Assembly (NCBI GenBank): GCA_001567365.1
Contig: JZEL01000010.1
Span: forward strand, 15,030 to 79,029
Source of the DNA: Parcubacteria bacterium OLB19
GTDB lineage: Bacteria; Patescibacteriota; Minisyncoccia; Phycocordibacterales; UBA918
Reading direction: 5' to 3'
Length of the DNA: 64,000 nucleotides
Positions 25,322 to 63,137 of the stretch are shown here, piece by piece; within the stretch, counting starts at the first letter, position 1; each line of letters begins with the position of its first letter. A program made the translations under genes and the position numbers. The notes beneath the pieces were generated by a model. It saw only the letters and a list, made by a program, of their open reading frames with translations. It ran no database searches and was not told where the DNA came from.

Positions 25322-27041
25322 TTACACATTATCACCTAATTCGGTTGATGTAGACACTTCCTCATAAGGAGGGATAATGAGATCAGGAATATCAATATGA
25401 CTGTCATTTACTTCAACATCAGTACTTGTAGACTGACTGAGGTCTAGTGTCATATCTAACTCTGTATATGATTCTGTTATCACTGATTCTTCAGTACTGG
25501 TAGCTAAATTAAGAGTCAAAGGATCTTCGTTGTCATTATCAATAAAATCATCATCTGGTAGATCGGCCTCTATAATGGTCTTAACTTCTGGTTTAGATTG
25601 CACTAAAGCTTTTACTTCAGTTGTTGTCTCGCTGTCTGGAATATCGGGTAGTGGCTTAGGTAATGTATCCAATTGTATAAACTCACCAGTAAATATATCG
25701 TACCCCTTTGTGACAATGTCACCGTTTGGATGCAGTGAATCATAAACAAGTACCATGCGCGGATTGTCTACAGTTAAACCATCGGGGTCATTCACAGTAA
25801 CGTAACTACCACTGTCAATGTTGTACATTTCTATTGTTTTATCACCGTTAGTGTTTGTTCTATTCCATATAACCAACGAACCTTGAATATGTGGCGCGAG
25901 GTTATGATTATCATCATTAGTTATTTCTTTCTGTACAATACCGTCATAAAGGATAATGTTCCAACTATTATTAAGCCAGCTTTGCCAAACCGTATATTTA
26001 CCTTGTCTTGTGGGCTGCATGTTATTCACACTACCATCTGTTAATTGTGATTCTTCTCCGGATTCTAGATCATAACTAATGATTTGGAAACGGTCATCGA
26101 TTAATCTTTGCCACACAATAGTATTGGAAATATTATCAAAATATGGTGATGCATCATCCACTAAATTTTCTGTAATCTGTGCTTGTTTTCCATCTCTTAC
26201 TAAGAATATCTCTAGATCGCCATCTTGATCGCGGGCAGAAAAAAAGAGCATCTTCCAGACGTTCTTCTTCGATTTCACGACAATAAAATGATCCGTCTTC
26301 TAGTTTGGTACAATCATCTTTATCAAAAACCACAGCATCGTCACTTTCGGCCACAGAAACTGATTCGTAAGTTGTAGTTGCAGATTCGGTGGATGTAGAT
26401 GATTCGTAAATAATATTTTCGATTGTGTTATTTGTGATTTCTGCGTTTTCAATCACATTCTCGTTAATATCGACATCGGTATTACCTTCCTCAACATAGA
26501 CATCATCATTAATCACATCCTGATCGTTAATCATATTCTCAGTATTTGCTTCTGTTGTTGATGTAGATACTTCGGTAGCATCATCGGTTACTGAATCATT
26601 TCCGGTTATTATTTCGTTAATATCTGACTGTGATTCCTCTTCTATCTGAGTAACATCATTTGTACCCACTATTTCTGCGGAAACATCATTAAATACTGGT
26701 GATTCCTCCACTGAAGTCTCAGTAACAGTATCTGCACTCACCCCACCTTCCTCGACTTCACTAGCATAAGCAACATAAAAACCCTGCATTAGTAAAGATA
26801 CTAGCAGTACAAACACACACACCAAACTCAGTGCGCTATTATAAACGTAGTGATACAAAATCGATCTTTGTATAGGCTCTATGTTTTCGTTCGAACCAGG
26901 CGAACGAATAAAAGCACGACGCAAAGAAGCGTTTGTTTTACGAATGTCTGTTTTCGGTTTTTTAATAAGTTTTTTACTCATCAGACGACAGCCATTTGTA
27001 GCAGAGAGTAACGTAAACCCATCACAATATAATAATAGCAA
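25322..27041 (-). CDS. Membrane-anchored protein with an acidic stalk and a C-terminal TolB/WD40-like beta-propeller. It is split by a frameshift in a T7/A7 run (26238..26244).
   Basis: TM is ALSLVCVFVLLVSLLMQGFYVAY, followed by a D/E/T/V-rich low-complexity region. C-terminal repeats read DGDLEIFLVRDGKQ...YTVWQ...WNIILYDG...SLVIWNR. Removing one T from the run gives ...LEDALFSARDQDGDLEIF..., a continuous reading frame. Confidence 0.5.
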
Positions 27042-27158
27042 TGTAAATAGCTATTTTGCTATTAGTTATCAACAAACATCTATCTAGCCAAATCAAGGAA
27101 GGATTTTGTAAGAATTATGGAAAAATCAACAAAATTCATCTTTCCATCATCATTAAAA

Positions 27159-27833
27159 TCATAGGTAGTTTGCTTTGAGTTCCAACTTGCCAAAAAACGC
27201 GCCGATGTCATTTAAAGTGACTTTTCCGTCACCATCAATATCGGCATTTATGTTGATCTTCACACTAGCTGCAATTTTGGTAGGATCCTCATCTTGATCA
27301 TAAAAATAGAAACTGGTTTTTGAGTTAGTGTTATTTTTATCAATTACTATACTTGTACCTAGACCATCCCCTGCCAAAAGTTCAACGCTCTCAACAAAAA
27401 ATTCTGTGTTCCCGTTATATTTAGCCTTAGCGTTGATGGTACCAATCAGGTGTTCTCCCAAAAAACCGCGCTTAAAGGTTCCTCCGCTAAACACAACTTT
27501 ACCATTTTCAACTTTAGGTTCATGTGTCCAAATGGTCAAAACTGAATTACCAGTATTTATATTCTTAATTTCTACCATTTCAGAGGAAAACCCTACATTA
27601 ATACTTATTGCATTAACTGGAACATGAGCGCTCACGTAAACATCAATACTAAACTCTTCACCCTGAGCGACGATTTCCTTTGATGGAACTAATTTGATAT
27701 AAGATTTATCCGATGAAATAACACTAGAAAAAAACAAGACCAGTGTACCAATCATAAATGGAAACATATAACGCACTGTGGTACTGCCACTTCTGTAAGA
27801 AAATATTTTATTCCATACAGTTTTTCTGTTCAT
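27159..27833 (-). CDS. Small surface protein with a cohesin-like beta-sandwich domain and a single C-terminal dockerin-like Ca-binding segment
   Basis: The cohesin-like region is paralogous to the genes at 28553, 30280 and 61111 (KVVFSGGTFKRGFLG...AGDGLGTSIVID). C-terminus is NADIDGDGKVTLNDIGAFFGKL (D-x-D-x-DG-x-V-x-x-x-D). Confidence 0.5.
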   Translation of the reverse strand: MNRKTVWNKIFSYRSGSTTVRYMFPFMIGTLVLFFSSVISSDKSYIKLVPSKEIVAQGEEFSIDVYVSAHVPVNAISINVGFSSEMVEIKNINTGNSVLTIWTHEPKVENGKVVFSGGTFKRGFLGEHLIGTINAKAKYNGNTEFFVESVELLAGDGLGTSIVIDKNNTNSKTSFYFYDQDEDPTKIAASVKININADIDGDGKVTLNDIGAFFGKLELKANYL

Positions 27834-28552: not shown

Positions 28553-30277
28553 CTATTTTTGAACCAAATCACTAACATCACTTGCCTCCTTCTCAATTTT
28601 TTGTTGTGCCAAATCTATGGATGATGATAATGAATTAAACATTTCTTCTTCGGCTTTGGTTAATTTTTTGGTTTTCCTTGATTCAATAATATCTGTCTGA
28701 TATTTACTGATAATACTGCGTAAACCACTAAACTCATTTTTAACTATTCCGATCACCTCGCCCGATTCTGTCGAGACCTTCTTACGCATAGATCTAAAAC
28801 GTATTAAAGAGAACCAAGTTGCTACCACCATGAGTGCAGTCATAGCAATAAGAGGAATAACCACCGATAATAGGTCAATCAAAAATCCACCAACACGAAC
28901 ATAACCTGGTTGTTGAACGGCAATTCTGATAGTTTCTGATAAATCAGAGAGGGCTCCAAACTGATCTTTTGATCTAGCCTTTAATTCGTAAACACCAGTT
29001 GTAAACGTGCCTTCCGGTATAAAAGTGAAAACACCCTTGTCGTCGGCACTAGTCATATATGAAGCTGGTTCAGCGCCAATTTTTTGAACAAAAATTTCAA
29101 CTTCGGAATTTGGTCTAGTGTTTCCTCTGATTACTGGAATAACCTCCTCATTTATTTCACTCGGGTATTCTGTAAAGGTTGGTTTATCAAATGCCAGAAT
29201 GGTGAAACTGTGAGTAGATACTAAACTGTTTCCAGCTCTATCAATCGCCTCAATAACCAAGGAGTGGTAACCAGGCAAAAGTGGTGGTAATTCTAGGCTT
29301 CGAGTTTCTTTTTCATCAATAAATTCGTAAGGTTCTGATTCGTCAATTTTAACTTTATATTTTATTACACCTGAAGTTTTATCATTAACATCTAGTTTGA
29401 CGATCTGCACTGGATTGGTGTAATCAGTGTTTTCAATCGCCTTAATTTCAAAATTTTCTGGTTTTTCAGTGTCAATTTTTAATGCGAAATGAGATACTCG
29501 CCCCCACCCTTCGCTATTCTTGAATTGCAGGTGAAAATAAGAAGTGCCCTCATCTAAGTCATTTAAAGATATCTCGCTAATTGGATTTTCGTAAACCTTG
29601 GTTGGAATAGTGTTCGGTGAACTATCTAATGCGGTTCTTACAGCCACAACTCCGCTTGGTAAAGACCAATTTAATTTGACATCTTTGACAGTTGTCCACT
29701 CGCCTTCCTTATGTGTACTAGACTCAATCTTAGGTGCACCTGGTGTATTGGCTGGTGCCACGTACTCAATAACCTCTGGTGTTGGTTCAGAACTAGGAGC
29801 TTGAATTGTGAAATTGGCTCCACTCATTCCGGAGAGTATATTAGTACCCATACCGTCATTAGCCAAAACCGAACCATCCATAAATGACAACTTACCCGTT
29901 CCGGCCGATGTTGTACGAAAAGTGACATTAAAAATGTTACCAGATGTTCCCTTATAACCAGAGGGCATTCCACCACTAAAACTTATAGTTCCAGCAGAAT
30001 TTGAAAAGGTTGGCTCAGTCACCCAAAGATTAAAAATTGATGAAGATTTATCAATTGATACAACAGTCATCTCCTGAGGATTAAACTTTAATGATCCTTC
30101 AGCGGCATTAACAGATTTTCCATCAGTATTAATCACTACCTTAACTGTAAAAGTTTTGCCTGATACGTAAACACCCGTATTGGGTGAAATTGATAGTGAA
30201 GCTGCGAATACAGGAAATGGCAGTACGGAAATCAAACCACAACAAATCAATATTTTTTTGAGGTGAGAAAAATCCAT
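28553..30277 (-). CDS. Membrane-anchored cohesin-like scaffold protein: signal peptide, cohesin-like domain, Ig/FN3-like domains, a TM and a cytoplasmic coiled-coil tail
   Basis: SLSISPNTGVYVSGKTFTVKVVINTDGKSVNAAEGSLKFNPQEMTVVSI...FSNSAGTISFSGG...NIFNVTFRTTSAGTGKLSF...ANDGMGTNI. TM is LIDLLSVVIPLIAMTALMVVATWFSLI, followed by a K/E-rich C-terminus. Confidence 0.5.
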   Translation of the reverse strand: MDFSHLKKILICCGLISVLPFPVFAASLSISPNTGVYVSGKTFTVKVVINTDGKSVNAAEGSLKFNPQEMTVVSIDKSSSIFNLWVTEPTFSNSAGTISFSGGMPSGYKGTSGNIFNVTFRTTSAGTGKLSFMDGSVLANDGMGTNILSGMSGANFTIQAPSSEPTPEVIEYVAPANTPGAPKIESSTHKEGEWTTVKDVKLNWSLPSGVVAVRTALDSSPNTIPTKVYENPISEISLNDLDEGTSYFHLQFKNSEGWGRVSHFALKIDTEKPENFEIKAIENTDYTNPVQIVKLDVNDKTSGVIKYKVKIDESEPYEFIDEKETRSLELPPLLPGYHSLVIEAIDRAGNSLVSTHSFTILAFDKPTFTEYPSEINEEVIPVIRGNTRPNSEVEIFVQKIGAEPASYMTSADDKGVFTFIPEGTFTTGVYELKARSKDQFGALSDLSETIRIAVQQPGYVRVGGFLIDLLSVVIPLIAMTALMVVATWFSLIRFRSMRKKVSTESGEVIGIVKNEFSGLRSIISKYQTDIIESRKTKKLTKAEEEMFNSLSSSIDLAQQKIEKEASDVSDLVQK

Positions 30278-30279
30278 AA

Positions 30280-31315
30280 TTAATCAGTATCAATATTATC
30301 AGTAACCTCATCTTGTTGCTGCATCCTTTTTCGTCTTCGGCGTAGAACAAGGACGAAAATTATTATTATAATAATGACTAATAGCGCAGTACCCGCAATA
30401 GAATAGGTGATGATTTCATTTTGTGAAATAGTTCGTAGTGATTCTTCAGGAACTAAAGTAGCTATATATTCATTACCAGCTTTATCTAGAGCCTTTACTC
30501 TAACAATACTATTGAGCGATTGATCCTTTAGTACATAAGGACTATCGACTTCTATCCACGGAACTCCGACACCACCCCAATCAAAGCTATAGAATTTTGA
30601 AATTGGTTCCTCCATCACTTCATAATGACTAATTCCAGTTTGTTTGTCAGTAGTAATAAAATCGATATAATATTTGCCATTAAAATTTATACCGTTAGTA
30701 TCCTTGTTTAGATTTATACTAAACTGTTCCGGTGGTAAGTCGTCGGTTTTTACAAAATTTCGCCAATCGTCAACTATAGTCGCCCCAGCATTTTTTTTCT
30801 AGTTTAATACTGCTGTTAAAGGTTGCCAGCTGAGCCAAACTCCCTTGTCCGTCATTAAGCAAAGCTTGAGTCTCTGGTGCAAATTCAATTGATGCAATGT
30901 CTCCACTCTCAGACTGACCAACCTGCATTCCCGGTGATCGGAAAATAATTTCAGTCAGAACGTTAGTTAGCATTGGATCGCCATCCACTCGTCCACAATA
31001 ACCATTAGGAATACCTCCAGCGAAGGTGATTCTCCTGTTTTCCTTATCAATTACAGGCCTCTCCACCCAAATACTAAAAATCGACTTTCCTATTGAAACA
31101 TCAATTGGCTGAATATTGTCTGAATAATTAATAACAGCGTCAACTGCGTTTATACATTCACCCTGCTCCTTATCAGGCAATAAACGTACAGCTACGGTCA
31201 CCGCATCGCCACGATTTATAGTAGTAGAAGCTGGATCCATGTATAAGGTAGCAGCAGATACTGTTGGTGTATAAAAATAAAAAACACCCAACAAAATAAA
31301 CAGGAATCTAAACAT
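30280..31315 (-). CDS. Second cohesin-like membrane protein: signal, cohesin-like domain, TM and a basic tail. One frame is disrupted by a single-base insertion in an A8 run (30791..30798).
   Basis: ATLYMDPASTTINRGDAVTVAVRLL...ITFAGGIPNGY...LLNDGQGSLAQLA. Reading A8 as A7 joins ...SSIKLEKNAGATIVDDWRNFVKTDDLPPEQF... in frame with ORF 30280..30618. The C-terminus has a TM plus RRRRKRMQQQ. The downstream ORF begins at a GTG. Confidence 0.5.
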
Positions 31316-31435: not shown

Positions 31436-32584
31436 TTAAAATACTGGCGTTGCTACGTATGTCAGCGTAGCTGTATAGTCTGTTGCAGCTTCCTGAAGAC
31501 CAGAAGTTTCTACGGTATAACCAACTCTGGCTATACCAACTCCATCAAGAGTACCGTTTGTTGGACCATTGTGACGGAAGATTTCAACTGGGGTAGTTGA
31601 AGCAGAAACGTAATCTTCGCCGTTTCCACTAACATCGAACTCATCGGTTAATCCAGAAGTTACAGTATCATCATTTGAAGTAATACCCCAGTGACCATAA
31701 GTATTTTCTTGACCAAGAGTTTGCGATGGTGCTACCCATTGTGTTGGTGAGCTTGTGTAAGCTCCGTCAATAAATCCATCAATATCAGAACCATTGGTTG
31801 AACTTAGCTGTTGATCTGTTTGTACAGTTACAACAAAGCCGTTGGCGGCGTTGGTACTAACTGAAAGATCTTGAGCCAAAGTTGCAGGAGTGTCTGCTAC
31901 CAATTGACCAAATGGAATTGCTGTTGATGTTGAAGTACCAGTGGTACTTGCTCCGTTAACAGATAGACCGTTGTTTACACCATTAACAGTAAAGTTAAAA
32001 ATGGTATCAACTGAGGCTGTCACTGTAACTGTGTTAACAATAGCAACCATTGACTGACCAGAATCACTATTTCCCACATCTACTGTGATCCAATATGAAC
32101 CAACAGCGGGATTGGTGATTTGACTGTCACCAGAAGTAGCAAACGTTGCGTTTGTACCAATTTCGATAGTTACGGTTGCGTTAGTACCAATTGTTGATGT
32201 ACCACTTGTGATGTCAATAACTTGACCAGCAGCGGTAACATTCCAGTTGGCGCCACTAGCAGCACCGTCAATTAAGCTCTGATCAGAACCGTTCACACTT
32301 AAGTCCAAATCCTCAGCTGTTAATGAAGCAATTCCAGTGAATCCAGTTTCGAATTCAAGAGAAATAGTTTCACCTGCAGCTAGACCGGTTGGTGTTACAA
32401 ACGTAATCGTGTGGTTCGATACGGTTGATGGTGCTGAGTCAGAAAGAGTGTCGCTAAATGATTTGACATTTGCAGCTTCCGCAAAGCGGATAGTTGGTAC
32501 TCCTAGCGACCATAAAATGATTGCGAAAGTACAAACTGCTGCTGTAGCTTGGAGCAATGAGAACGAATTTTGCGTTCTTAACAT
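31436..32584 (-). CDS. Secreted Thr/Ser/Gly-rich protein (382 aa) with its own promoter and terminator. Candidate abundant surface or fibre-subunit-like protein.
   Basis: Signal peptide is MLRTQNSFSLLQATAAVCTFAIILWSLGVPTIRFAEA. GC content is visibly higher than in its neighbours. C-terminus ...GLQEAATDYTATLTYVATPVF is related to the C-terminus of the 1857-aa giant (ELQEAGDYETEVVYLAIPSY). Confidence 0.5.
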   Translation of the reverse strand: MLRTQNSFSLLQATAAVCTFAIILWSLGVPTIRFAEAANVKSFSDTLSDSAPSTVSNHTITFVTPTGLAAGETISLEFETGFTGIASLTAEDLDLSVNGSDQSLIDGAASGANWNVTAAGQVIDITSGTSTIGTNATVTIEIGTNATFATSGDSQITNPAVGSYWITVDVGNSDSGQSMVAIVNTVTVTASVDTIFNFTVNGVNNGLSVNGASTTGTSTSTAIPFGQLVADTPATLAQDLSVSTNAANGFVVTVQTDQQLSSTNGSDIDGFIDGAYTSSPTQWVAPSQTLGQENTYGHWGITSNDDTVTSGLTDEFDVSGNGEDYVSASTTPVEIFRHNGPTNGTLDGVGIARVGYTVETSGLQEAATDYTATLTYVATPVF

Positions 32585-32789
32585 ATTGCTCTACGTTGTA
32601 TTTAGTCTACAGTTTGAATTGACATGTCGCGACTCCACGTCTGTTCAAATGGTTAAACCATGCGATGAACAGTCTCCACACCGTGCATCTTATAATGCAC
32701 TGTAAACATACTTGATTTTGTAATACTCGGCTGAAGTACCCAAGCTCCGCGACAAAGCCTGCAGTGAATCTAAAGGTTCACCTCCAAAA

Positions 32790-32876
32790 CAAGTACTCTT
32801 GTATTGTAACTTGCGATAAAAATTTTAGTGACAAGTTATACACAAAAATATTTTATAAAAAATATTTTTTTTATCC
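32790..32876 (-). promoter_or_regulatory. AT-rich promoter region for 31436..32584, followed by an unusually long (~200 nt) GC-richer leader
   Basis: Minus strand reads TTGTCA-(19 nt)-TTACAAT, and TGTGTATAAC (extended -10-like) lies just upstream. The exact -35/-10 pairing is uncertain because the spacing is not optimal. Confidence 0.3.
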
Positions 32877-33998
32877 TTATCCTGTCCAATTGAATAGTAA
32901 AATTGAAAAATCCTCGATACCAACCTTTCCATTACCATTAATATCAGCCGATGGATTTGAATTACCTCCATTAGAACCCCACCAGAAAATTAAAATAGAG
33001 AAGTCAGTTAAATTAACCTTTGCATCACGATTTAAATCTGAGCTAGTCGTAACTTTACCATTTACACCCACAAAGAGCTGTAAGGCGGTGCTGAAACTAC
33101 TTTGTGATGTAATCGGTGGTGTACCAGAAATTGATCTAGCCTTAAGAGTATGCTCAGCAACTTTTAACTTTTTGGTATCAAGCGCAATGCTCCAAGTTCC
33201 ATCAGAACTAGAAGTAGCCCTTTCAATCAATTCACTTTTATTTACATGAAGTTCTACAACTGCATTTGGAACTGACTGACCGCTAACCGTTACAATATCG
33301 CCAGGATTAACGTTTTGATTAGATAGTTTTATAGTTGGGGGCAATATAATACCTGTTATGTTAGTTATAGCTCCCTGAGTAACGTCAAAAGTGGTATTGA
33401 AGGTTATGGATCTAGTATCAAATTTATCAGTAGCCCAAAAACTTAATGACGCAGTGCCTGGTGACGCTTCTGTAGCAAAATCAAACTTACCCTCAGCATT
33501 TGCTTTCACAGTACCAACCTGCTCACTATCAAGTAAAATATTAATTGTCCTATTTGGATAGCCAGTGCCTTTAACACTAATTTCGGATTCTCCAAAATCC
33601 TTAGTAGAACCTCCACCACCTCCACCACCTCCACCGGAAGTACCACCGCCACCAGAGCCAGCGGGCTCTATTTTGCAGATAGCTGAACAGAAATCTCCAT
33701 TATCATTATTTCCATCATCACACTCTTCAGTTTGTGAAACCTGAAGAATACCATCACCGCAATACGGACCCCACTGACAATTAGCAGTACACTGTCTGCC
33801 AGCGATTGTTGTACTATACTCCCCCGTCTCACCAGGAACATCGCACTCCTCATTATTGTCAACTAGAGAATTACCACAAATACTAACGATAGCAGTGGTG
33901 GTGGAGGACCCCTCAGTAACTGCCTCTGTTTCAGTCGGTGTAAACGAAGCAAAGGCTATTAGTAGCAAATTAATACCAGCGAGAAATATTAATTTCAT
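32877..33998 (-). CDS. Secreted dockerin-bearing protein: signal peptide, two Myxococcus-type Cys-rich repeats, a poly-Gly linker, two Ig/carboxypeptidase-regulatory-like domains and a C-terminal double dockerin
   Basis: CGNSLVDNNEECD...CTANC and CGDGILQVSQTEECDDGNNDNGDFCSAIC. Linker is GGGGTSGGGGGGGGGS. C-terminus is DLNRDAKVNLTDFSILIFWW...DINGNGKVGIEDFSILLFNW, i.e. two F-hand Ca-binding dockerin segments. Confidence 0.6.
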   Translation of the reverse strand: MKLIFLAGINLLLIAFASFTPTETEAVTEGSSTTTAIVSICGNSLVDNNEECDVPGETGEYSTTIAGRQCTANCQWGPYCGDGILQVSQTEECDDGNNDNGDFCSAICKIEPAGSGGGGTSGGGGGGGGGSTKDFGESEISVKGTGYPNRTINILLDSEQVGTVKANAEGKFDFATEASPGTASLSFWATDKFDTRSITFNTTFDVTQGAITNITGIILPPTIKLSNQNVNPGDIVTVSGQSVPNAVVELHVNKSELIERATSSSDGTWSIALDTKKLKVAEHTLKARSISGTPPITSQSSFSTALQLFVGVNGKVTTSSDLNRDAKVNLTDFSILIFWWGSNGGNSNPSADINGNGKVGIEDFSILLFNWTG

Positions 33999-34002
33999 AT
34001 GG

Positions 34003-34999
34003 TTAATTAATTTGTTTTCTATTTCTTCTACGATTATGAATGATGTAAATAATTGAAATGATAACTACAAATATCGGTAGAAGAACGGATATTTTATGCG
34101 CAACAGAAAGACCGTTGAATCCAAAGCCAGCTTCCTGAAGAGTACCATATGGCAAGATACTTAGACTCACCTCACCTTCCTGTTTTACTTCTTCGTCATT
34201 ATAAATTTTATATTTAGCAATATAGTTGCCTGCGGGTAGTCGAGTTGGTATTTCTGCAAGCACTTCTTCTGTTGCATACGGTGCAATCTTTTTTTATTTT
34301 TCCTTTGTTTTCTGTTTCCTCTAGCAGAACATTACCGGAAAAATCAAAAATTCTAAACTCCACTCTCGAAGGTGAAATGTCAACATTTCCTGTATTTTCA
34401 AGAAGCATACCAAATTTTATTTTTCCAGGAAAATACAACCAACCCAACTTGTGTCCCTCGTTTAAATCGGACAAAGATACTTTTCTAACTCTAAAATCCT
34501 TTATCTCCTTATCAATAACAGTGAGATTGATATCAACTTGTGCACCAAGTGAAATACTAACAGCACCAGGAGCAACTTGGCTGTCATCAGGGAGAGTCTT
34601 AATTCGCATTACTCCTTTGTAGTCCTTAAATTCAGCATCGTCAGGTACCTTTACTCTTACTGTCATGGGTACTTTTTGTTCTCCTCTAGGAAGCTGTATA
34701 TTATTACCCTCAACAACCTCTATCCAGCTTTGTATTTCTGGCGCATCAATTGTAATTTCCGCCTTAAGAGGAACATCGGGATTTCCACGCACTAAAAGAA
34801 TTTGTTGTTCGTAAGTTGAATTTCTAATTAAACTAGTATTACGAACATATGGTGGAGTAATACCAAAGCCAGCTTGTGCTACTTCAATACCGACAATGAA
34901 AAAGAGTAGACAGAAAGCTACCAACTTATGTAGACTGCTAAAAAAACTAGTTTTCGACACGCTAATAATTATCAATAATAAAACAATAAAAAGCAACAA
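34003..34999 (-). CDS. Third DUF916/CscA-like membrane protein paralog, split by a frameshift in a T7/A7 run (34289..34295)
   Basis: GFGITPPYVRN...SWIEVVEGNNIQLPRGEQKVPMTVRVKVPDDAEFKDYKGVMRI is paralogous to 18079..19101. The downstream piece supplies the second beta domain and a C-terminal TM (ISVLLPIFVVIISIIYIIHNRRRNRK). Confidence 0.45.
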
Positions 35000-35049
35000 C
35001 CACTGTCTGGATAACAGTGGTTGTAATACTTTCTAATTAATTTCTTTTT

Positions 35050-36909
35050 TTACCAATCTGAAGCGTCAGAAGCAACCGCATAGAAGGTGTTTAATCCGGT
35101 ATACGCACCAGCAAGAGTGATGGTCGAGGGAACCTCTATACCCCAGTAAGTAATACCAGTATTAGGTGTGGTGGTAGATGTTGTCTTCTGCACTTTTAAC
35201 GCTAACAACTGTGGTGTAGAAGATGATAAATCCATACCACTGCCGTAGGACACAGAGCTTGTGGCAAATTCTTGCTTAAAGTCTGGAATGGTAGATGTAG
35301 ACGAATTCACACACGGACTACCAACTGAGAAGTTTGTACACATAGCCTCACCTTCTATATTTTGATTAAGTCCAGTGTTACCAACAGATCTGATCGTTGT
35401 TGTCGCAGTTAGACTACCAGTGTTATCACCTGGTTCAAGTGTCCCATAAGGTATTTCTGCTGTAATCAAATCGATTGCTGGGAAACTAATCAACTCAACC
35501 GGGCTTGAACCTATAGTCATGGTACCAGTAGCGTTATTGTCATCAATACCTGATATAGCTGCTACCCAAGTGTTAGTTGCGTAAAAGGCTGTAGCATCAG
35601 TCGGATCAGCCAGATACCAAAGCGGGAAGGTACAATTGAAGATTTTGGTTGGATCAGTAGCGCCAGTACAGCTAGTTGTTGAAGCGGTACAACTCAGATT
35701 CCAAGTAGTTGTAGCTAAGCCACTGCTCGGATAACAACTGTTAGGATTGTAGGAACTATATAAACCAGTACATGTAGAGGTACCGACACCACTTCTATGT
35801 AAAGATACTATGTAGTTCGTTATTTCTGGTGAACTAGCTGCATTCACACAACTATTCGCATCGGATAACTCAAAATCTAAGGTAAATCCGGTCGTCTCAG
35901 CACCGTCGACGGTTAGTGTGATGTTGCTTCCGCCATTAAGATCTATATCACCAGAAGCAATAGTTGGAGCAACGTTACCGACTGTGAAGCCAACATTAGT
36001 TCCATGAGCACCTCCAGACGCAGTGTGTCCATGACCATCTATTACGTAACCCCATGCATCATAAACATCATCTTGAATAACGCTAGGTAGAGTATAGCTT
36101 GTGGTGGCATTGGCGTGAACAGTTATGGTTGTACTAGCTATAGTTCCACCTGGACCACAATTCAAGGTAGTAGTACTAAAGTCATTTTCATTACAAACAA
36201 TAAGTTTGATAGGGTCAGACTCTGTCACAGTATCAGAATCCGATGAAGTTGAATAAAAAGTCAGAACTTCACCTGGATATTTAACAGAATCATTTGTAAA
36301 GGAGGTGAAAACGGGACGATGATTTACGTAGAATGGTGATGAATTAGTTGCAGAAAGTCCTTGTGAGTAAGTGTTATTACAACGAGGATTTACAGGGTCA
36401 TCATCGCAGATCCAAGCATACCAATCGTTTTGTTCTGCAAAAGCCTCCTGAGTAGTAGTAGAGACAGTTGCTACTGTATTTGAAGTTGTTGAAGCTGATA
36501 CACCCCACTGTGTACCACCATTACAATTTGGTGGAGCTGAACCTAGCACCAAAAGTGAGGGTGCGGCATTAGCAGTTGGTGTTGCACTAGTACTACATAC
36601 AATGAGGAAGTACGGAGCATTACTAGAATCCTCAGCTAAAGCAGCCCAGGTGACATTGGTGGTTGAGTTGGTTGGAGTGGAGGTAGATGACTCAGTTTGC
36701 TCATGAGCCATAGTCAACCATTGTGGAGGAGTGTTGAGAACAGTAAGCGTGGTAGTAGCAGACTGTGCCTCAACCTTCATTAACTCAGTTTTACCGGCAT
36801 TAAAAAGAAAAATGAAGGCAAAAATAAGCATTCCTGAAACAGCTGTGAAGATTGTAATCTTCCCTGCTGTTTGCAATTTGTTATTTTCTGATAATAAGTT
36901 GTACAACAT
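35050..36909 (-). CDS. Secreted/anchored Thr/Ser-rich protein (619 aa). Its C-terminal ~150-aa domain is shared with the 3747-aa giant protein.
   Basis: N-terminal TM is ITIFTAVSGMLIFAFIFLF. C-terminus ...SSSTPQLLALKVQKTTSTTTPNTGITYWGIEVPSTITLAGAYTGLNTFYAVAS aligns with the giant C-terminus ...SSSTPTAIDLNLSKPTTVAPPVETEVYWGIAVPFGTSNSTHTGLNTFTAVGI. Confidence 0.5.
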   Translation of the reverse strand: MLYNLLSENNKLQTAGKITIFTAVSGMLIFAFIFLFNAGKTELMKVEAQSATTTLTVLNTPPQWLTMAHEQTESSTSTPTNSTTNVTWAALAEDSSNAPYFLIVCSTSATPTANAAPSLLVLGSAPPNCNGGTQWGVSASTTSNTVATVSTTTQEAFAEQNDWYAWICDDDPVNPRCNNTYSQGLSATNSSPFYVNHRPVFTSFTNDSVKYPGEVLTFYSTSSDSDTVTESDPIKLIVCNENDFSTTTLNCGPGGTIASTTITVHANATTSYTLPSVIQDDVYDAWGYVIDGHGHTASGGAHGTNVGFTVGNVAPTIASGDIDLNGGSNITLTVDGAETTGFTLDFELSDANSCVNAASSPEITNYIVSLHRSGVGTSTCTGLYSSYNPNSCYPSSGLATTTWNLSCTASTTSCTGATDPTKIFNCTFPLWYLADPTDATAFYATNTWVAAISGIDDNNATGTMTIGSSPVELISFPAIDLITAEIPYGTLEPGDNTGSLTATTTIRSVGNTGLNQNIEGEAMCTNFSVGSPCVNSSTSTIPDFKQEFATSSVSYGSGMDLSSSTPQLLALKVQKTTSTTTPNTGITYWGIEVPSTITLAGAYTGLNTFYAVASDASDW

Positions 36910-36989
36910 AAAATTTAATAAATTAATAAAATATAACTACCAGAATATTGTAACTAATAGTTATCGCTATTGGTCAATAGTTATACACA

Positions 36990-38198
36990 TTATTCGTATC
37001 GAATCGCATCAAGCGGATTCAGGGTTGCAGCTCTTTTGGCAGGAAAAACTCCGGTCAAATATCCAACTGCGGCCGAGAAGAGCATAATAAACAATAAGAA
37101 TGCTAGTGGGAATGAAAACAATGCTACTGCCTGACCGCCAAATTGACTAGCCACAAGATTCAAGAAGAAGTTAACAGTTAAGCCAATAGTGACACCCATG
37201 ACAATACCGCTAACACCTCCTAAAAAACCTACGACAATTGATTCTGAAATAAATAAGTTCTTCACGTCGCTAGGTGAGGCACCGATTGTGCGCATAATCC
37301 CAATCTCTTTAGTTCTTTCAAGCAAGGTTACTGTCATAGTATTAAACATACCAATTGCTGATACAATCAAAGCAATACCACCAAAAGTAGCTAAAACAAC
37401 CTGAATTCCTTGGAAAATTTTTGAAGCTTGCTCAACTGTCTTTGATAAAGCAGTCACCCGATAACCTGACTCAATTAACTTAGCCTCAACTAATGGTAAA
37501 TTTTCATTTGAGTCAACTCTAACCTGTATACGCTCAAACTCCTCAATTCCCACATAATTACGTAATTCTGGAAGCATCATCATTGCATTCAAAACACCCT
37601 CTTCCTTAGTGATACCTCTGACTGTGTATTCCTTTTCTATCGGTATTTCCTGAATATCGCCAGACCCATCTGTTGCTGGAACCAAGAGTCTAAACGAGAC
37701 CTTCTCTCCTACAAAGGATTCAGGATCTTCTATACCGAATAATTTTAGTGTAGCGGGAGACAGCATAACAGAATTTGTATCGCCCGCATCGACATCAGTA
37801 AATACCTCACCAGCTGAAGCTGTGATACCAGCATAACGAAGATACGGAGGTTCGACTCCCTGAATAAAAACATTTCCGGTTAAACCCTTGTAGGTTACTA
37901 ATGCGGGAAAACGAGCCAAAGGAGAAGCATCTAGCACTTCAGGCATATTCTTAAACTCCTCAACTGTTTCGATATCTAATTTTAAACTTTGACTTCCAGT
38001 AGTTGAAACACCAAGCGATAACAGAGTCTCACCAAAAACGATTTGCTCCAAAATAATTTTTTGTAGACCAAAACCTAAACCTACCAACACCACCACAGCT
38101 CCAGTTCCTACTCCCATACCGAGAATAGTAAGCCAAGTACGAAGTGGGTTCGTTTTGAACATTCTGGTTGATAATTGTGCTAGGTCCTGAATTCGCAT
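36990..38198 (-). CDS. ABC transporter permease of the MacB/FtsX/LolE type, with 4 TM segments and a large extracytoplasmic domain
   Basis: 402 aa. There is an N-terminal TM, a ~230-aa periplasmic domain and three C-terminal TMs. The FtsX-like C-terminus reads GIMRTIGASPSDVKNLFISES...AKRAATLNPLDAIRYE. Confidence 0.75.
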   Translation of the reverse strand: MRIQDLAQLSTRMFKTNPLRTWLTILGMGVGTGAVVVLVGLGFGLQKIILEQIVFGETLLSLGVSTTGSQSLKLDIETVEEFKNMPEVLDASPLARFPALVTYKGLTGNVFIQGVEPPYLRYAGITASAGEVFTDVDAGDTNSVMLSPATLKLFGIEDPESFVGEKVSFRLLVPATDGSGDIQEIPIEKEYTVRGITKEEGVLNAMMMLPELRNYVGIEEFERIQVRVDSNENLPLVEAKLIESGYRVTALSKTVEQASKIFQGIQVVLATFGGIALIVSAIGMFNTMTVTLLERTKEIGIMRTIGASPSDVKNLFISESIVVGFLGGVSGIVMGVTIGLTVNFFLNLVASQFGGQAVALFSFPLAFLLFIMLFSAAVGYLTGVFPAKRAATLNPLDAIRYE

Positions 38199-38201
38199 AA
38201 A

Positions 38202-39523
38202 TTAACTCTTATAGCTAACATCAACGCCTTGAGCGATGATTTTTTCAAAATAGCGTGTCAGTTCATCCGCCTCCTTTTCATCAAGTCCAAGTCCATCGTT
38301 TTTAACAGTTTGCATGAGTGTTTGATTGAATTGATCCTCTTCAATCACACCAGTAACGCGATCAGCGATTAGTTCCACCAAATTGCTATTTTGCTCCTTA
38401 GTTAACCTTATATGAAACATACCAACCAAATGGTCTCGTAACCGCTCTGCCAACTTATCCTGACTGAAAAAAATATCATCATTATCCTTTCTAGCCCGAA
38501 AACGTCTAATATCATCCGATTGACTAATTAATTTCTCAGTAATACCAGCCATTTTCTTTGCTTCTGCCTCAGGAACCTCAACACCTCCCTTTTCATAGGG
38601 TAAAATTAAGCTTTTTATGAAAGCCTCTCTATCAATTTTACCCTTAATAAACAATACAATAGCGTGTTCTAATCTAGTAAGCTGGCGATAAGTATAATCT
38701 TGAGTTAGAAAATTAACCATACTTTTTACACGAAGTGTATCAACGGAATCATAAGGAAAAAGTCTGGCTAACTGTTCGAGTTCAGTCACAATAGTCTCCC
38801 CTTCTCTAACTGGTTTTATTTGTTTTCTCTGCGGATTTACCACCTCACGTACAATTAGACCATCCTTCAGATAATAAACACGGTGCGCATAACTAAGATG
38901 AGCAGCGTTATGAGAAACCATAATCACTGTTCGACGGTCAAATGTGTTAATTTCATCAATTTTATCCATCACCTGCTGTGTAGAAACTGAGTCAAGGTTT
39001 CCGGTCGGCTCATCAGCTAAAAGAATTTTTGGATCATTTACCATCGAACGAGCTACCGAACACGTTGTTGTTGTCCTCCGGATAGCATAGCAGGAATTTT
39101 ATGTGAGACATGACCGACACCAAATCGATCTAGCAGGGACTGAGCTCGACGATTTCTTGTACTTTTATCGGCGTCACAAAAAATCATTGGTAAAGCCACA
39201 TTATCAAGAACCGACAATGAACCAATAAGATTGAAGGATTGGAAGATAATACCCATCACGTACCGCTGAAAATAAACTCGCTCTTCTGGTGGATAAGAAT
39301 AAATATCGTCGCCACGTATAAGTAAAGTGCCGTCACCAGGAGGTAGCGAACCCTGGATTGCATACATCAATGTTGATTTACCAGAACCAGACGCGCCGAA
39401 AAGAATAATGTATTCACCTTCGTAAATATCAGTATTTACATTACTAAGAGCCCGAAATTCGTTAGATTTACCTTTATTATAAATGATGGACAAATCACGA
39501 CAAACAATCAGGGGTTTAGCCAT
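38202..39523 (-). CDS. ABC transporter ATP-binding protein with a ~200-aa C-terminal extension. It is interrupted by a 1-nt frameshift between the signature motif and Walker B (near 39053..39065).
   Basis: Walker A is GASGSGKSTL and the signature is LSGGQQQRV. The frame then switches into ...SVARSMVNDPKILLADEPTGNLD (Walker B), i.e. QQQRV-SVARSM-VNDPKILLADEPT if one base is restored. The 215-aa C-terminal domain is of unknown type. Confidence 0.75.
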
Positions 39524-39607
39524 ATCATTATTATGACATCTTCATGAAGATAAAGTGTGTATTTATATCCCCAACTAAATGTATCTCGAGAGATGTAAAT
39601 TTGTAGT

Positions 39608-41104
39608 TTAAGCGCCTATATTCTTAACCCAACCGAATGTGCTTTGGAAGTTCTCAATAATAAGATCAATAATGTTTTTTTCTTGAATTGGTGTAAATAG
39701 TACGAAATTCTCTGACTGAACCTTATTACCGGCTTCATCATCACAATTTAACCAAAACTGATAGACAGTGGTTGGTGCAAAATCCACCACCACTTCCACG
39801 TGTCGAGTATTGTACTCAACCTTTTCCTTTTCTCTCACAGTCGGCTCTGTACCACCAGCCACTCCTTCGCGATATGTCATTAGACAATACGCTGGCTCAT
39901 CGGTTGTCCATTCAACAATAGTTTGAATTCTTGATTCACTACCAGGAAAAATAGTAGATTCATTAGTTACATTAGAGATTATAGGTGAAGCAATATCGCG
40001 CACTGTTACAAACTGGATGGGTTGACTACGAACTCTGTCCCCTCCTGAGTTTTCCGAAATAACAAAGGCCACATATCTAGTACCTAAAGTAAGGTCAGAT
40101 AGGCGCATCTGATGCGTAGTAGTAAGCGTTGGGCGTCCTACTGAATTTTGTGCTCCAGTCGTCAAATCTTGGTATTCTACCAAAGCTTTTGCGGGTACAG
40201 TTGTGTCCCATGCCAGAGTAGCAGAATTCTCTTCCACCTTAACCACTCGTAAATTTTTAATATCAGGCAGAGAAGCCTTAGTTTTAAAGGTAAAATTACG
40301 ACTCTCACCCTTAATACTATATGAATCTTCAGAACTAACTTTAAAGCTATATTCAGTAAAAGGTTCGAGGCCAATTAGTTTTATTTCATGATCTGTAGTA
40401 GCGCCACCCGTAGAAGCTTGTGAGTAAGCGTAATTTGTACCATCAAAACCAGCACTAGGTGAGAAGAAAACTTCTGAGGTTGCGTCACGATCTGTTGTCC
40501 ATCTTACAATAGCAGTAGTTGTCTCCGGTATAACTGTTGGCGGTCCAACAATAGTCAAATCCTCAGTAATACCCTGAATAGCCTTAATAACCTCATTTAC
40601 AATTTCCTGGAGTTGCTTTGGGTCATTTATTTGATTTATTTGTTCCATAACCTCCTCCGTAGTTGGTGCTTGTGAACTTTGAGTGGTGGTATTAGTTGAT
40701 TCACTTGTACTCTGACTCGATCCATTATCAGTTGTACCACTGGTTTGAACCTTGTAATCCGCGGAAATACCTTGATTGCCATTAGCATCAGCTGAAACTA
40801 CTCGAAAATAGTAAACTCTCCCCTTTTCTAAATTTTGTAGAGTAATAGAATGTTTAGTTTTATCCGCCACTGGCACACGAACAATTCCTAAATCTGGCTG
40901 TAAACCAAAATTAACTAAAGAATCGGCTTCTTCGTCAGTTTCCCAAGTAATCGTGACATTAGTTTCAGTCACATCTTTAACTTGAACATTAGAAATCTCA
41001 GGTGATTCTTTATCACTTGATTGTGCCCAAACAAAGCCTGATAACGGTAAACATAAACTTAGAAGAAAAGCTGAGATTTTAATGAGGAGGGTATTTTCTT
41101 TCAT
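39608..41104 (-). CDS. Secreted protein with repeated fibronectin-type-III-like domains
   Basis: Signal peptide is MKENTLLIKISAFLLSLCLPLSGFVWAQS. FN3 hallmarks: VTITWETDEEADSLVNFG...YYFRVVSADANGNQG and further W/Y-containing repeats. Confidence 0.55.
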   Translation of the reverse strand: MKENTLLIKISAFLLSLCLPLSGFVWAQSSDKESPEISNVQVKDVTETNVTITWETDEEADSLVNFGLQPDLGIVRVPVADKTKHSITLQNLEKGRVYYFRVVSADANGNQGISADYKVQTSGTTDNGSSQSTSESTNTTTQSSQAPTTEEVMEQINQINDPKQLQEIVNEVIKAIQGITEDLTIVGPPTVIPETTTAIVRWTTDRDATSEVFFSPSAGFDGTNYAYSQASTGGATTDHEIKLIGLEPFTEYSFKVSSEDSYSIKGESRNFTFKTKASLPDIKNLRVVKVEENSATLAWDTTVPAKALVEYQDLTTGAQNSVGRPTLTTTHQMRLSDLTLGTRYVAFVISENSGGDRVRSQPIQFVTVRDIASPIISNVTNESTIFPGSESRIQTIVEWTTDEPAYCLMTYREGVAGGTEPTVREKEKVEYNTRHVEVVVDFAPTTVYQFWLNCDDEAGNKVQSENFVLFTPIQEKNIIDLIIENFQSTFGWVKNIGA

Positions 41105-62672: not shown

Positions 62673-63137
62673 TTACTTTGTAACCGACCTTCGATCCTGC
62701 TTTATTCTTAATCTAACCCTCTCTTTTTCTGAAGCCTTAAGCAAAGGGAGAATCAAGATAAGAACTCCGTTTTTTATTTTAGCTTCCGCTTTTTCTATAT
62801 CAACACTTTCAGGCAAGATAATTCGTCTATAGAAATCTCCCCAAACACACTCCTGAGCAAAGAATGCACCTTGTTCCTTCTTTTTTGAGAAAACTAAATA
62901 TTCCGGTCTTATTCTCCTTCCTTCAATCAAAACTATATCAGCATCGCCTTCAATTGAAACATTAACGTCATTCATATCAGCTCCTGCTGATTGAGCATAA
63001 ATCACAATCATTTTTTCGGTTTGGTAAACATCTACATCAAGCTGAGCAACCTTATCCGCTGCTGTCTCTTCTGAATCTGATTGCAATGCTTGACCCGATC
63101 TTACACCACGATTTTTTAATCTTTGCAGGAATGACAT
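62673..63137 (-). CDS. Hsp20/alpha-crystallin family small heat-shock protein
   Basis: ACD hallmarks: LDVDVYQTEKMIVIYAQSAG...FYRRIILPESVDIEKAEAKIKNGVLILILP. Confidence 0.75.
   Translation of the reverse strand: MSFLQRLKNRGVRSGQALQSDSEETAADKVAQLDVDVYQTEKMIVIYAQSAGADMNDVNVSIEGDADIVLIEGRRIRPEYLVFSKKKEQGAFFAQECVWGDFYRRIILPESVDIEKAEAKIKNGVLILILPLLKASEKERVRLRIKQDRRSVTK

Follow-up and report, generated by a model that had tools for sequence, protein, structure and literature searches.

Genes for dockerin-bearing and membrane-anchored cohesin proteins in a conserved cluster of a Paceibacteria-type CPR bacterium: a probable non-cellulosomal system

Cohesin–dockerin pairs that function outside cellulosomes are established (Peer et al. 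2009, FEMS Microbiol Lett 291:1, as cited in PMC9012536). These non-cellulosomal modules (Peer, Smith, Bayer, Lamed & Borovok 2009), including the Archaeoglobus fulgidus cohesin (PDB 2xdh) and those of ANME archaea (Chadwick et al. 2022, PMC9012536), are, as far as those accounts describe them, the closest known kind to the locus analysed here. The locus differs from them in three respects: a single operon, strictly conserved throughout an entire CPR class, encodes both members of the pair; the cohesin proteins have type-I membrane topology and a cytoplasmic tail that is conserved; and the dockerin proteins share a fixed cassette in which a Gly tract leads to a pair of Ig-like domains and a dockerin (Gly-Ig-Ig-dockerin). 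With the clostridial and ruminococcal cellulosome (PDB 1ohz, 2vn5, 6kgf, 4uyp) it shares a secreted protein whose C-terminus is a dockerin of two 22-residue Ca-loop segments, a cohesin fold closest to type I, and the logic of anchoring cohesin, adaptor (cohesin plus dockerin) and cargo; unlike the cellulosome, it has TM-helix anchoring instead of SLH domains or sortase, and no glycoside hydrolases, carbohydrate-binding modules (CBM) or multi-cohesin scaffoldin. The FIVAR-Doc cohesin/dockerin modules of Clostridium perfringens (GH33/GH84; PDB 2vo8, 2jh2, 2w1n, 2o4e) link secreted glycoside hydrolases into complexes, whereas here there is no enzyme and the cohesins are membrane-anchored. Within the CPR, the saccharibacterium Southlakia epibionticum possesses SEML1_0315, an essential dockerin-domain envelope protein for which a role in adhering to the host or targeting glycans has been proposed (Wang et al. 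2023, Cell, PMC10633639). As described there, it resembles the protein studied here in being a dockerin-bearing envelope protein of a CPR bacterium, but S. epibionticum belongs to another CPR class, and that description includes no cohesin partner or operon. The literature searched contained no description of a cohesin–dockerin operon of this kind in Paceibacteria or Parcubacteria; the kind of system is already known (Peer 2009), and the TM-anchored, CPR-wide operon appears to be undescribed in that literature.

The window, that is, the whole 64,000-nucleotide stretch of DNA that was analysed, has a GC content of about 38%, and named homologues belong to Ca. Nomurabacteria, Paceibacterota and Kaiserbacteria, one of them being encoded on a complete genome of 1.09 Mb. 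The source is a Paceibacteria/Nomurabacteria-type CPR bacterium of low GC content, which agrees with an earlier note on this DNA, made from the sequence alone, that had assumed a low-GC and probably minimal-genome organism. The gene under study (32877..33998, minus strand, as are all features of the gene cluster given below) is an ORF encoding a dockerin-bearing protein of 373 aa that is predicted to be secreted. A signal peptide at its N-terminus precedes Cys-rich repeats (TIGR02232/DUF4215), which are followed by a Gly tract, a pair of Ig-like domains and, at the C-terminus, a double dockerin. According to the hydropathy profile, the N-terminal signal is its sole hydrophobic segment, so that the protein itself carries nothing to anchor it in the membrane or wall. 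More than 1600 homologues with identities of 63–98% and lengths of about 370 aa were found, and a peptide-pattern search for similar proteins in genome contigs, performed with over-specific patterns, revealed only distant Cys-repeat proteins (Peribacteria, Polyangiaceae).

The C-terminal double dockerin (32880..33044, aa 319–373) matched the Pfam family Dockerin_1 (PF00404) with a score of 28.8 bits (E 1.4e-6) against a gathering cut-off of 22.9. The earlier note had recognised a canonical double dockerin at 32877..33045, corresponding to residues 319–373 plus the stop codon, and had proposed such a Pfam scan as the test; the peptide that it quoted is the exact C-terminus, and its reading was borne out. 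The Ca loops occupy D321–D332 (DLNRDAKVNLTD) and D352–D363 (DINGNGKVGIED), with a spacing of 31 residues between the segments, and each precedes a DFSIL(I/L)F(W/N)W stretch, so that FSIL.F.W follows both. Asp or Asn is present at loop positions 1, 3, 5 and 12 in both segments, with Asn at position 5 of segment 2; the only departure from D/N at positions 1, 3, 5, 9 and 12 is position 9 of that segment, which is Gly. In 32 homologues the loop positions are invariant or nearly so, and the mean column conservation of the dockerin is 0.90. Among the ORFs in all six frames of the window, the 12-residue Ca-loop pattern was counted five times, compared to 0.14 expected from shuffles (maximum 1), and all five occurrences fall inside the three dockerin genes. 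In an AF2 model of the whole protein, built from a shallow, nearly invariant alignment and with no Ca2+ modelled, the pLDDT was below 50 over aa 317–373, with short strands where helices are expected, and the fold is therefore assigned from sequence. Judged in this way, the C-terminus appears to be a genuine type-I-like dockerin, which probably binds Ca2+. It is hydrophobic at loop positions 10–11 (L-T/I-E) and helix positions 17–18 (I-F/L-F), unlike the C. thermocellum dockerins with their S-T/K-R at these positions. The near-symmetry of its segments (DFSILIFWW, DFSILLFNW) is reminiscent of dual binding by type I dockerins. A weak dockerin-HMM match elsewhere in the window, in a 586-aa protein (16428..18218), was rejected, as it corresponds to a TM helix.

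The Cys-rich head (33669..33884, aa 39–110) comprises two TIGR02232/DUF4215-type repeats, with scores of 46.3 bits for the NCBIfam model TIGR02232 ‘cysteine-rich acidic repeat’ (cut-off 20.8) and 38.1 bits for Pfam DUF4215 (cut-off 27). Both of the repeats proposed earlier are recognisable, the first (C41...C74) having the same CGN-x-EECD...C-x3-C frame as the second but carrying an insertion; only the second (aa 78–112) scores independently. Eight Cys residues are invariant or near-invariant in 32 homologues, and the AF2 pLDDT of the head is below 50. The family profile matches residues 864–897 of human PAPP-A (E 1.4e-5; PDB 8a7d, 7y5n), and with its motif CGDG-x-EECDDGN-x-DGC-x-C the head resembles the TIGR02232/DUF4215 ‘Myxococcus cysteine-rich repeat’ proteins and the repeat in PAPP-A; the relatives of myxobacterial type are giant proteins with 10–40 tandem copies, whereas here two copies are fused to the dockerin cassette.

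The head is followed by a Gly/Ser tract, EPAGSGGGGTSGGGGGGGGGS (33606..33668, aa 111–131), which is nearly invariant across the family and includes the Gly linker that had already been pointed out, GGGGTSGGGGGGGGGS, at aa 116–131. Its conservation of 0.93 is the highest in the protein, the tract being the sole region to exceed the dockerin. Across 53 loci, it is encoded by 49 distinct DNA versions using all four Gly codons, while its length stays at 16–20 residues. The stalk (33063..33596, aa about 135–312) consists of two Ig-like beta-sandwich domains; it matched Big_6 with 41.5 bits (Pfam cut-off 27.6; E 1.6e-10) and CarboxypepD_reg/Big_13 below the Pfam threshold, and it was modelled by AF2 as all-beta with a pLDDT of 83–96.

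Four cohesin-type modules, overlooked earlier, are encoded in the window, two of them 2.6–4 kb downstream of the dockerin gene in the same conserved operon. The protein coh574 (28553..30277) consists of a signal peptide, a cohesin module (29798..30205), a beta-rich middle part, a Big_13 domain, a TM helix (28817..28873) and a charged cytoplasmic tail of 87 aa; its cohesin scored 31.8 bits with Pfam Cohesin (PF00963; cut-off 24.1) and is its most conserved region (0.77). The same architecture was found in coh512 (61111..62649), a second TM-anchored single-cohesin protein with the cohesin at 62146..62553 (29.6 bits, same cut-off), for which an exact-sequence look-up found no identical record. 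The cytoplasmic tails of the two proteins are homologous (alignment score 80 vs 33.6 ± 5.8 for shuffles). The other two modules have no Pfam Cohesin match of their own and were detected by hhalign against the family of coh574 and coh512: that of g350 (30800..31255) with a probability of 99.6% (E 6e-25) and that of p251 (27324..27707) with a probability of 98.6% (E 5e-16). The g350 gene (30280..31315) encodes a signal peptide, the cohesin-like module, a second Ig-like domain, a TM helix and an Arg-rich tail; in the window it is split into ORFs of 181 and 112 aa by an A8/A7 homopolymer indel near 30791, and intact orthologues are 338–405 aa long.

Hydropathy profiles of the cohesin proteins show a signal peptide and, at the C-terminal end, a TM helix with a K/R-rich segment behind it, and each protein bears one cohesin only, with no CBM or SLH matches in any of them. 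When profiles of the cohesin families were compared with the PDB, only Big_13-like and EF-hand/dockerin matches were obtained and no solved cohesin was reached (best cohesin match 5g5d, E 0.39); the fold was therefore checked by structure prediction based on an alignment of database homologues. The predicted model displays the nine-stranded beta-sandwich (jelly-roll) of cohesins and is closest to the type I cellulosomal ones. According to the earlier note, the dockerin reading would have to be given up if the repeats belonged to an EF-hand-like family with no cohesin partner; the four cohesin-type modules in the window, two of them in the same operon, speak against this. One could still suppose that the repeats are no more than a pair of EF-hand-like Ca2+-binding sites which stabilise the protein or attach it to a glycan or wall polymer, that the cohesin folds nearby bind something else, and that no pairing takes place; we regard this as improbable.

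The p251 gene (27080..27833) encodes an adaptor-like protein with an N-terminal TM segment, the cohesin-like module and a double dockerin (27083..27242). In the window the 3' end of the gene is disrupted at a T6 run near 27195, where a 1-nt frameshift moves the second dockerin segment, DFNDDGKMNFVDFSIILTK, into the frame of 27083..27211. Intact orthologues (247–256 aa) have the full double dockerin, for which the one in locus L004 scored 25.4 bits with Dockerin_1 (cut-off 22.9), and the single dockerin-like segment formerly seen at the end of 27159..27833 is thus an artefact of the frameshift. The third dockerin protein, a paralogue at 63189..64000 whose N-terminus is cut off by the window end, indeed resembles the 373-aa protein, as had been stated, in its Gly-rich linker and dockerin (63192..63356; Dockerin_1 40.4 bits), and also in its two Ig domains with a Big_6 match, but the likeness does not extend to the Cys-rich head: full-length relatives of the paralogue have a different N-terminal head with neither the Cys repeat nor PF13948. 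The dockerins of the two proteins are 73% identical and the cohesins of coh512 and coh574 50% identical, with lower identities to the other modules (about 40% for dockerins and 25–38% for cohesins).

The genes for the 373-aa dockerin protein, a 382-aa protein, two TM-anchored cohesin proteins and the cohesin-plus-dockerin protein follow one another in this order, which is kept, with all genes co-oriented, in every related locus with enough flanking sequence among about 80 loci. Orthologues of coh574 are present in 38 loci, and 33 loci extend at least 3 kb downstream. CP060227.1, a complete genome, and GCA_021733565.1 have this order as well. The 382-aa protein (g382, 31436..32584), located between the dockerin and cohesin genes, is secreted, Thr/Ser-rich and conserved, with an orthologue on the same strand in 53 loci and no family match in Pfam or NCBIfam. 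On the other side, g318 (34003..34960) stops 5 nt short of the start codon of the dockerin gene; it encodes a signal peptide, an extracellular domain, a TM helix at the C-terminal end and a basic tail, and an A7/A6 indel near 34289 splits it in the window. Conserved genes for a secreted protein (g619), a MacB/FtsX permease, an ABC ATPase (split) and an fn3/purple-acid-phosphatase-N protein lie further upstream (35050..41104). The whole co-oriented cluster spans roughly 45 kb, between window positions 63.9 kb and about 19 kb; beginning at the paralogue end, it comprises the dockerin paralogue, HSP20, coh512, a giant DUF2341 protein of roughly 6,600–7,000 aa, the fn3 protein, the MacB-type ABC transporter, g619, g318, the 373-aa dockerin protein, g382, g350, coh574, g191/224, p251 and more large proteins. 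A second, self-contained dockerin–HSP20–cohesin module is thereby present, which offers an independent clue to pairing and is also syntenic elsewhere, its gene order being kept in locus L095. Promoter and terminator scans revealed no enrichment over shuffles and no operon boundaries. Phase variation was considered as the origin of the homopolymer frameshifts and judged unlikely, since housekeeping genes in the window (the ABC ATPase and glutamate dehydrogenase) are split too and near-identical contigs are intact.

This gene set bears on an alternative in which the dockerin of the 373-aa protein plugs into the cohesin of p251 or g350, and the p251 dockerin docks onto a TM-anchored cohesin, either in a two-tier assembly such as that of the Acetivibrio/Ruminococcus adaptor scaffoldins or with p251 forming a head-to-tail polymer. 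The p251 orthologues do join a cohesin-like module to a full dockerin, the defining layout of an adaptor scaffoldin, and all components are equally co-conserved. On the other hand, p251 has its own N-terminal hydrophobic anchor and so needs no dockerin to stay on the cell, the paralogue module (dockerin–HSP20–coh512) is self-contained with no adaptor, and the class-A dockerins are each other's closest relatives, as are the class-A cohesins. We consider an adaptor role rather unlikely, though more probable than the absence of any pairing.

No glycoside hydrolase, CBM, protease or other enzyme domain was found in the three dockerin proteins or the cluster among the window ORFs scanned, in line with the earlier remark that glycoside hydrolases are not obvious here. 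Ten relatives sharing the Gly-Ig-Ig-dockerin cassette likewise contained no enzyme domains, their heads being MG2, InlB-repeat, Ig-like or unannotated. The dockerins of a cellulosome are carried by glycoside hydrolases or other carbohydrate-active enzymes, which is not the case in the 64-kb window, and instead of a multi-cohesin scaffoldin with CBM and SLH or sortase anchoring there are single cohesins and a C-terminal TM helix. A true degradative cellulosome-like complex, with its dockerin-bearing enzymes encoded elsewhere in the genome, would accord with the resemblance of the cohesin model to type I cellulosomal cohesins and with the fact that the window covers 64 kb of the genome; given the enzyme-free window, the non-catalytic or unannotated heads of the ten relatives, the single cohesin per protein, which leaves no multi-cohesin scaffoldin, and the size of about 1 Mb of the genomes of the host lineage, such a complex seems very improbable.

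Taken with the cohesins in the operon, the lack of enzymes supports the non-cellulosomal use of cohesin–dockerin pairing that the first reading of this DNA had suggested, and we think it likely that the locus encodes a non-cellulosomal system which tethers adhesin-like, non-enzymatic surface proteins to the membrane. The 373-aa protein is built as a head, a tether, a stalk and a plug: the head being the disulfide-rich TIGR02232 module, probably ligand- or host-binding, the tether the length-constrained Gly tract, the stalk the two Ig-like domains and the plug the dockerin. The single-cohesin proteins are fixed in the cytoplasmic membrane by their C-terminal TM helix and have the cohesin at their outer tip. 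Most probably the dockerin docks in a Ca2+-dependent, non-covalent manner onto one of the operon-encoded cohesins, which would keep the Cys-rich head at the cell surface. The result would be a small cellulosome-style assembly without enzymes, serving surface display or adhesion. By analogy and gene adjacency, the most probable pairing is that of the 373-aa protein with coh574, its proposed membrane anchor, of the paralogue with coh512, and of the p251 dockerin, which represents a second class, with a cohesin of the g350 or p251 type; since the region encodes three to four cohesins and three dockerins, other combinations agree just as well with the data. More tentatively, the cluster could represent a Paceibacteria-wide surface organelle, a cohesin–dockerin ‘adhesome’ for host attachment in episymbiotic, minimal-genome bacteria, in which interchangeable heads on the Gly-Ig-Ig-dockerin cassette would plug into membrane-embedded cohesin receptors, whose conserved cytoplasmic tails might couple the assembly outside to the cell interior.

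Little is known about host attachment and interaction in CPR/Patescibacteria, whose envelope proteins mostly lack annotation; in the present case automatic public names (‘DUF4215 domain-containing’, ‘hypothetical protein’) mask a coherent system. The locus provides a testable parts list, present in hundreds of Paceibacteria genomes, of a plug (the dockerin), sockets (the membrane-anchored cohesins) and variable heads. If the proposed binding is true, it would supply new orthogonal cohesin–dockerin pairs with hydrophobic recognition residues for protein engineering, the set of displayed cargo proteins could be found by scanning genomes for the Gly-Ig-Ig-dockerin cassette, and cohesin–dockerin pairing would be a general surface-display system in minimal-genome bacteria.

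The interval 32877..33045 forms the 3'-terminal part of the minus-strand ORF 32877..33998, which encodes a protein of 373 aa, hereafter the target; its translation exactly contains the peptide strings given in an earlier note. The canonical double dockerin described there was confirmed by Pfam: Dockerin_1 matches aa 320–367 with 28.8 bits (E 1.4e-6, cut-off 22.9), and Ca loops are present in both segments, DLNRDAKVNLTD-FSILIFWW and DINGNGKVGIED-FSILLFNW, which are spaced by 31 residues. Loop positions 1, 3, 5, and 12 are D/N in both segments; position 9 is N in the first and G in the second. A Ca-loop regular expression applied to all six-frame ORFs of the window found 5 matches, all confined to three genes, versus 0.14 expected from shuffles; therefore, the dockerin observation is real and not a chance match. 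Judged by its sequence, the target C-terminus is a dockerin, which would presumably bind Ca2+. Nothing supports the plus-strand ORF of 161 aa (32764..33249) that overlaps the dockerin-coding region on the other strand; it is almost certainly a shadow ORF.

Matches over the curated Pfam cut-offs were also obtained for DUF4215 (aa 69–109, 38.1 bits) and Big_6 (aa 135–203, 41.5 bits), and a further Ig-like domain gave a sub-threshold match. In the AlphaFold2 model of the whole target, two Ig domains have pLDDT values of 83–96, while the Cys-rich head and the dockerin are below 50. The sole hydrophobic segment in the hydropathy profile is N-terminal and signal-like, so the target has no anchor of its own. 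The likeness of the head to TIGR02232 repeats also held (NCBIfam "cysteine-rich acidic repeat", 46.3 bits, cut-off 20.8). In addition, the family profile matches residues 864–897 of human pappalysin-1 (PAPP-A) with E 1.4e-5 at target aa 77–110 (33669..33770), the common motif being ycGDGi-q-eeCDD-N-nGD-Cs--C. Thus, this "myxobacterial" repeat is also present in a human metalloprotease, and PAPP-A structures (8a7d, 7y5n) could help to model the head.

More than 1600 homologues of the target were found in databases, the best 120 of which are 64–98% identical to it and uniformly about 370 aa long; the named sources among the matches listed are Ca. Nomurabacteria, Ca. Paceibacterota, and "Patescibacteria group", and one homologue is located on a complete 1.09-Mb genome (CP060227.1). 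By mean column conservation, the Gly/Ser tract EPAGSGGGGxSGGGxGGGGGS (aa 111–131, 33606..33668, minus strand; 0.93) ranks first in the family, ahead of the dockerin (0.90), the Cys-rich head (0.84), and the Ig domains (0.73–0.77). The tract keeps a length of 16–20 residues across 49 distinct DNA versions using all four Gly codons, which indicates that the constraint acts on the protein. Such a constraint is unusual and unexpected for a passive linker; possible explanations include the need for an exact tether length and a role in processing or glycosylation.

The earlier note recognised the dockerins and missed the cohesins encoded in the same window. The gene of coh574 (28553..30277, minus strand), a membrane-anchored single-cohesin protein of 574 aa, lies 2.6 kb downstream of the target; its product matches Pfam Cohesin (31.8 bits, cut-off 24.1) and Big_13, and the cohesin module is its most conserved region (0.77). 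A second such protein, coh512 (61111..62649, minus strand; 512 aa; Cohesin 29.6 bits), adjoins the target's paralogue (63189..64000, minus strand). Homologues of coh574 occur in Ca. Kaiserbacteria, Pacebacteria, and Nomurabacteria, one being annotated "cohesin domain-containing protein" by NCBI. Parts of two more minus-strand genes, g350 (30280..31315; part 30770..31315) and p251 (27080..27833; part 27159..27833), align with coh574 and coh512 over the cohesin module, and hhalign with orthologue alignments from related loci linked both to the cohesin family (g350, 99.6% probability, E 6e-25; p251, 98.6%, E 5e-16).

Since the cohesin-family sequence profiles reached no solved cohesins, the fold was tested by structure prediction. 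The AlphaFold2 model of coh574 aa 1–175 (mean pLDDT 89.2, pTM 0.76) retrieved cohesins as all of its top 50 PDB matches in Foldseek (best E 1.5e-11, target-normalised TM-score up to 0.77); type I cellulosomal cohesins lead the ranking, and the matches include the non-cellulosomal Archaeoglobus cohesin 2xdh and C. perfringens cohesins. An unlikely rival reading is that the target dockerin is only a dockerin-like EF-hand pair that does not bind cohesin.

Comparison with near-identical public contigs (98–99.8% identity to the window) revealed single-base differences in homopolymer length. An A7 versus A6 run near 34289 splits the 318-aa gene g318 into ORFs of 261 and 86 aa, and A8 versus A7 near 30791 splits the approximately 350-aa g350 into 181 and 112 aa. 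Likewise, an ABC ATPase (38202..39523; 156 + 280 aa, 440 intact), glutamate dehydrogenase (14444..15710; 220 + 154 aa), and g670 (25322..27041; 295 + 318 aa) are split in the window and intact elsewhere. In p251, the 3' end of the 224-aa ORF 27159..27833 is frameshifted at a T6 run near 27195, and the second dockerin segment DFNDDGKMNFVDFSIILTK lies in another frame (27083..27211). In intact orthologues (247–256 aa), an N-terminal TM segment is followed by a cohesin-like module and a complete double dockerin, and one of them (locus L004) passes the Dockerin_1 cut-off with 25.4 bits; the "single dockerin-like segment" reported for this ORF is therefore an artefact. In an 85%-identical NCBI genome, all split cluster genes within its 21-kb locus are intact. 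Assembly indels are the likeliest cause; the pattern resembles homopolymer errors of long reads rather than pseudogenes or phase variation. Two abutting giant minus-strand ORFs (41131..61025), of 3747 aa with DUF2341 and 2883 aa with Ig_Rha78A_N and MG2, match one gene of 7004 aa in the complete genome CP060227.1 (Nomurabacteria), and the split near 52374 may be a further case.

Gene order was compared across 81 related loci, comprising 80 metagenome contigs and the complete-genome locus. As far as the flanks reach, neighbour genes always have the same strand and offsets: an fn3 protein, ABC ATPase, MacB/FtsX, the secreted protein g619, and g318 precede the target, and the secreted protein g382, g350, coh574, g191/224, p251, g670, and an approximately 2000-aa protein follow it. 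Thirty-eight loci contain an orthologue of coh574, while just 33 have at least 3 kb of downstream DNA, so linkage to the target is effectively complete. The giant ORFs lie between the two cohesin–dockerin modules and belong to the conserved cluster. An unrelated contig likewise preserves the second module, which runs from the paralogue through HSP20 and coh512 to the DUF2341 giant gene. Oddly, a small heat-shock protein, presumably cytoplasmic, is thus conserved within a surface-protein module; this HSP20/alpha-crystallin gene (62673..63137, minus strand) occupies the same position in locus L095 (2114..2614). Within the operon core, the only site strongly resembling a terminator is a perfect 12-bp stem-loop with a T-rich tail between g619 and g318 (34996..35024, minus strand), which may serve in attenuation or transcript processing; overall, terminator-like sites are no more frequent than in shuffles. 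Elsewhere, a 586-aa envelope protein (16425..18185, minus strand), surrounded by mostly minus-strand surface-protein genes, has LytR_C and a sub-threshold WxL-interacting-protein peptidoglycan-binding domain (25.3 versus 27.3 bits); its weak dockerin-HMM match proved to be a TM helix.

Hydropathy profiles of coh574 and coh512 show a signal peptide and, towards the C-terminus, a TM helix followed by a charged tail of 81–87 aa; by the positive-inside rule, the K/R residues at the start of this tail make it cytoplasmic. Signal peptides, C-terminal TM helices, and short basic tails were found in g350 and g318, and the single TM segment of p251 is N-terminal. The long tails (28556..28816 and 61114..61356, minus strand) are homologous (alignment score 80 versus 33.6 +/- 5.8 for shuffles), sharing the motifs (S/T)(R/K)K.K(K/R)L(T/S)K.E and IEKE..DV. 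Classical scaffoldins are not known to have a cytoplasmic part, and the homologous tails hint at an intracellular partner.

The paralogue has the Gly-rich linker and dockerin of the target, as had been claimed, together with the two Ig domains; its N-terminal head is different, and its family has no DUF4215 match. When 1.84 billion representative proteins were searched exhaustively, 286 matched at E <=1e-30, and many proteins of 250–900 aa match the target only at aa ~112–373, a Gly-Ig-Ig-dockerin cassette standing C-terminal to differing, mostly unannotated heads (representative proteins P0399–P0497). In a Pfam scan of 10 cassette proteins, nine had Dockerin_1 and none an enzyme domain; the heads were MG2, InlB B-repeat, Ig-like, or unannotated. 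The recurrence of the cassette suggests a family of surface proteins that carry a dockerin tag and are interchangeable. The window ORFs scanned contain no glycoside hydrolase, in agreement with the earlier note, and no CBM or SLH domain. A true degradative complex with its enzymes encoded elsewhere in the genome would agree with the lead of type I cellulosomal cohesins in the structural ranking, but with these non-catalytic or unannotated heads it is very improbable.

Cohesin and dockerin modules outside cellulosomes are well known across all three domains of life; the reference is Peer et al. (2009), as summarised in PMC9012536, which also reports an extensive set of such proteins in ANME archaea. 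A cellulosome-like system that does include enzymes is present in Cloacimonadota (PMC8542988), and in the saccharibacterium Southlakia a dockerin-domain protein was found essential, with a proposed role in adhesion (PMC10633639). The kind of system is thus already known, and the proteins are in public databases under automatic names. In the dockerin and cohesin literature searched for Patescibacteria, the candidate phyla radiation, and Parcubacteria, mostly outside subscription journals, the operon is not described. What appears undescribed is the arrangement: single cohesins anchored by a TM helix and bearing conserved cytoplasmic tails, a cohesin-plus-dockerin protein, the common Gly-Ig-Ig-dockerin cassette with non-catalytic heads, and an operon strictly conserved throughout a CPR class.

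The modules form two similarity classes: identity between the target and paralogue dockerins is 73%, compared with about 40% to the p251 dockerin, and between the cohesins of coh574 and coh512 it is 50%, compared with 25–38% to the other two. Because of these classes and the self-contained paralogue module, the favoured pairings are target with coh574 and paralogue with coh512; the p251 dockerin would then bind a g350-type or p251-type cohesin. The combination of cohesin-like module and dockerin in p251 would also suit an adaptor arrangement, which is possible but, given the two classes, rather doubtful. Overall, the best-supported and probable reading is a non-cellulosomal cohesin–dockerin display system. 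The secreted target would be built as a head, a tether, a stalk, and a plug, the plug docking in a Ca2+-dependent manner onto a membrane-anchored single-cohesin protein of the same operon; docking would keep the target on the cell, where its Cys-rich head may have an adhesive role.
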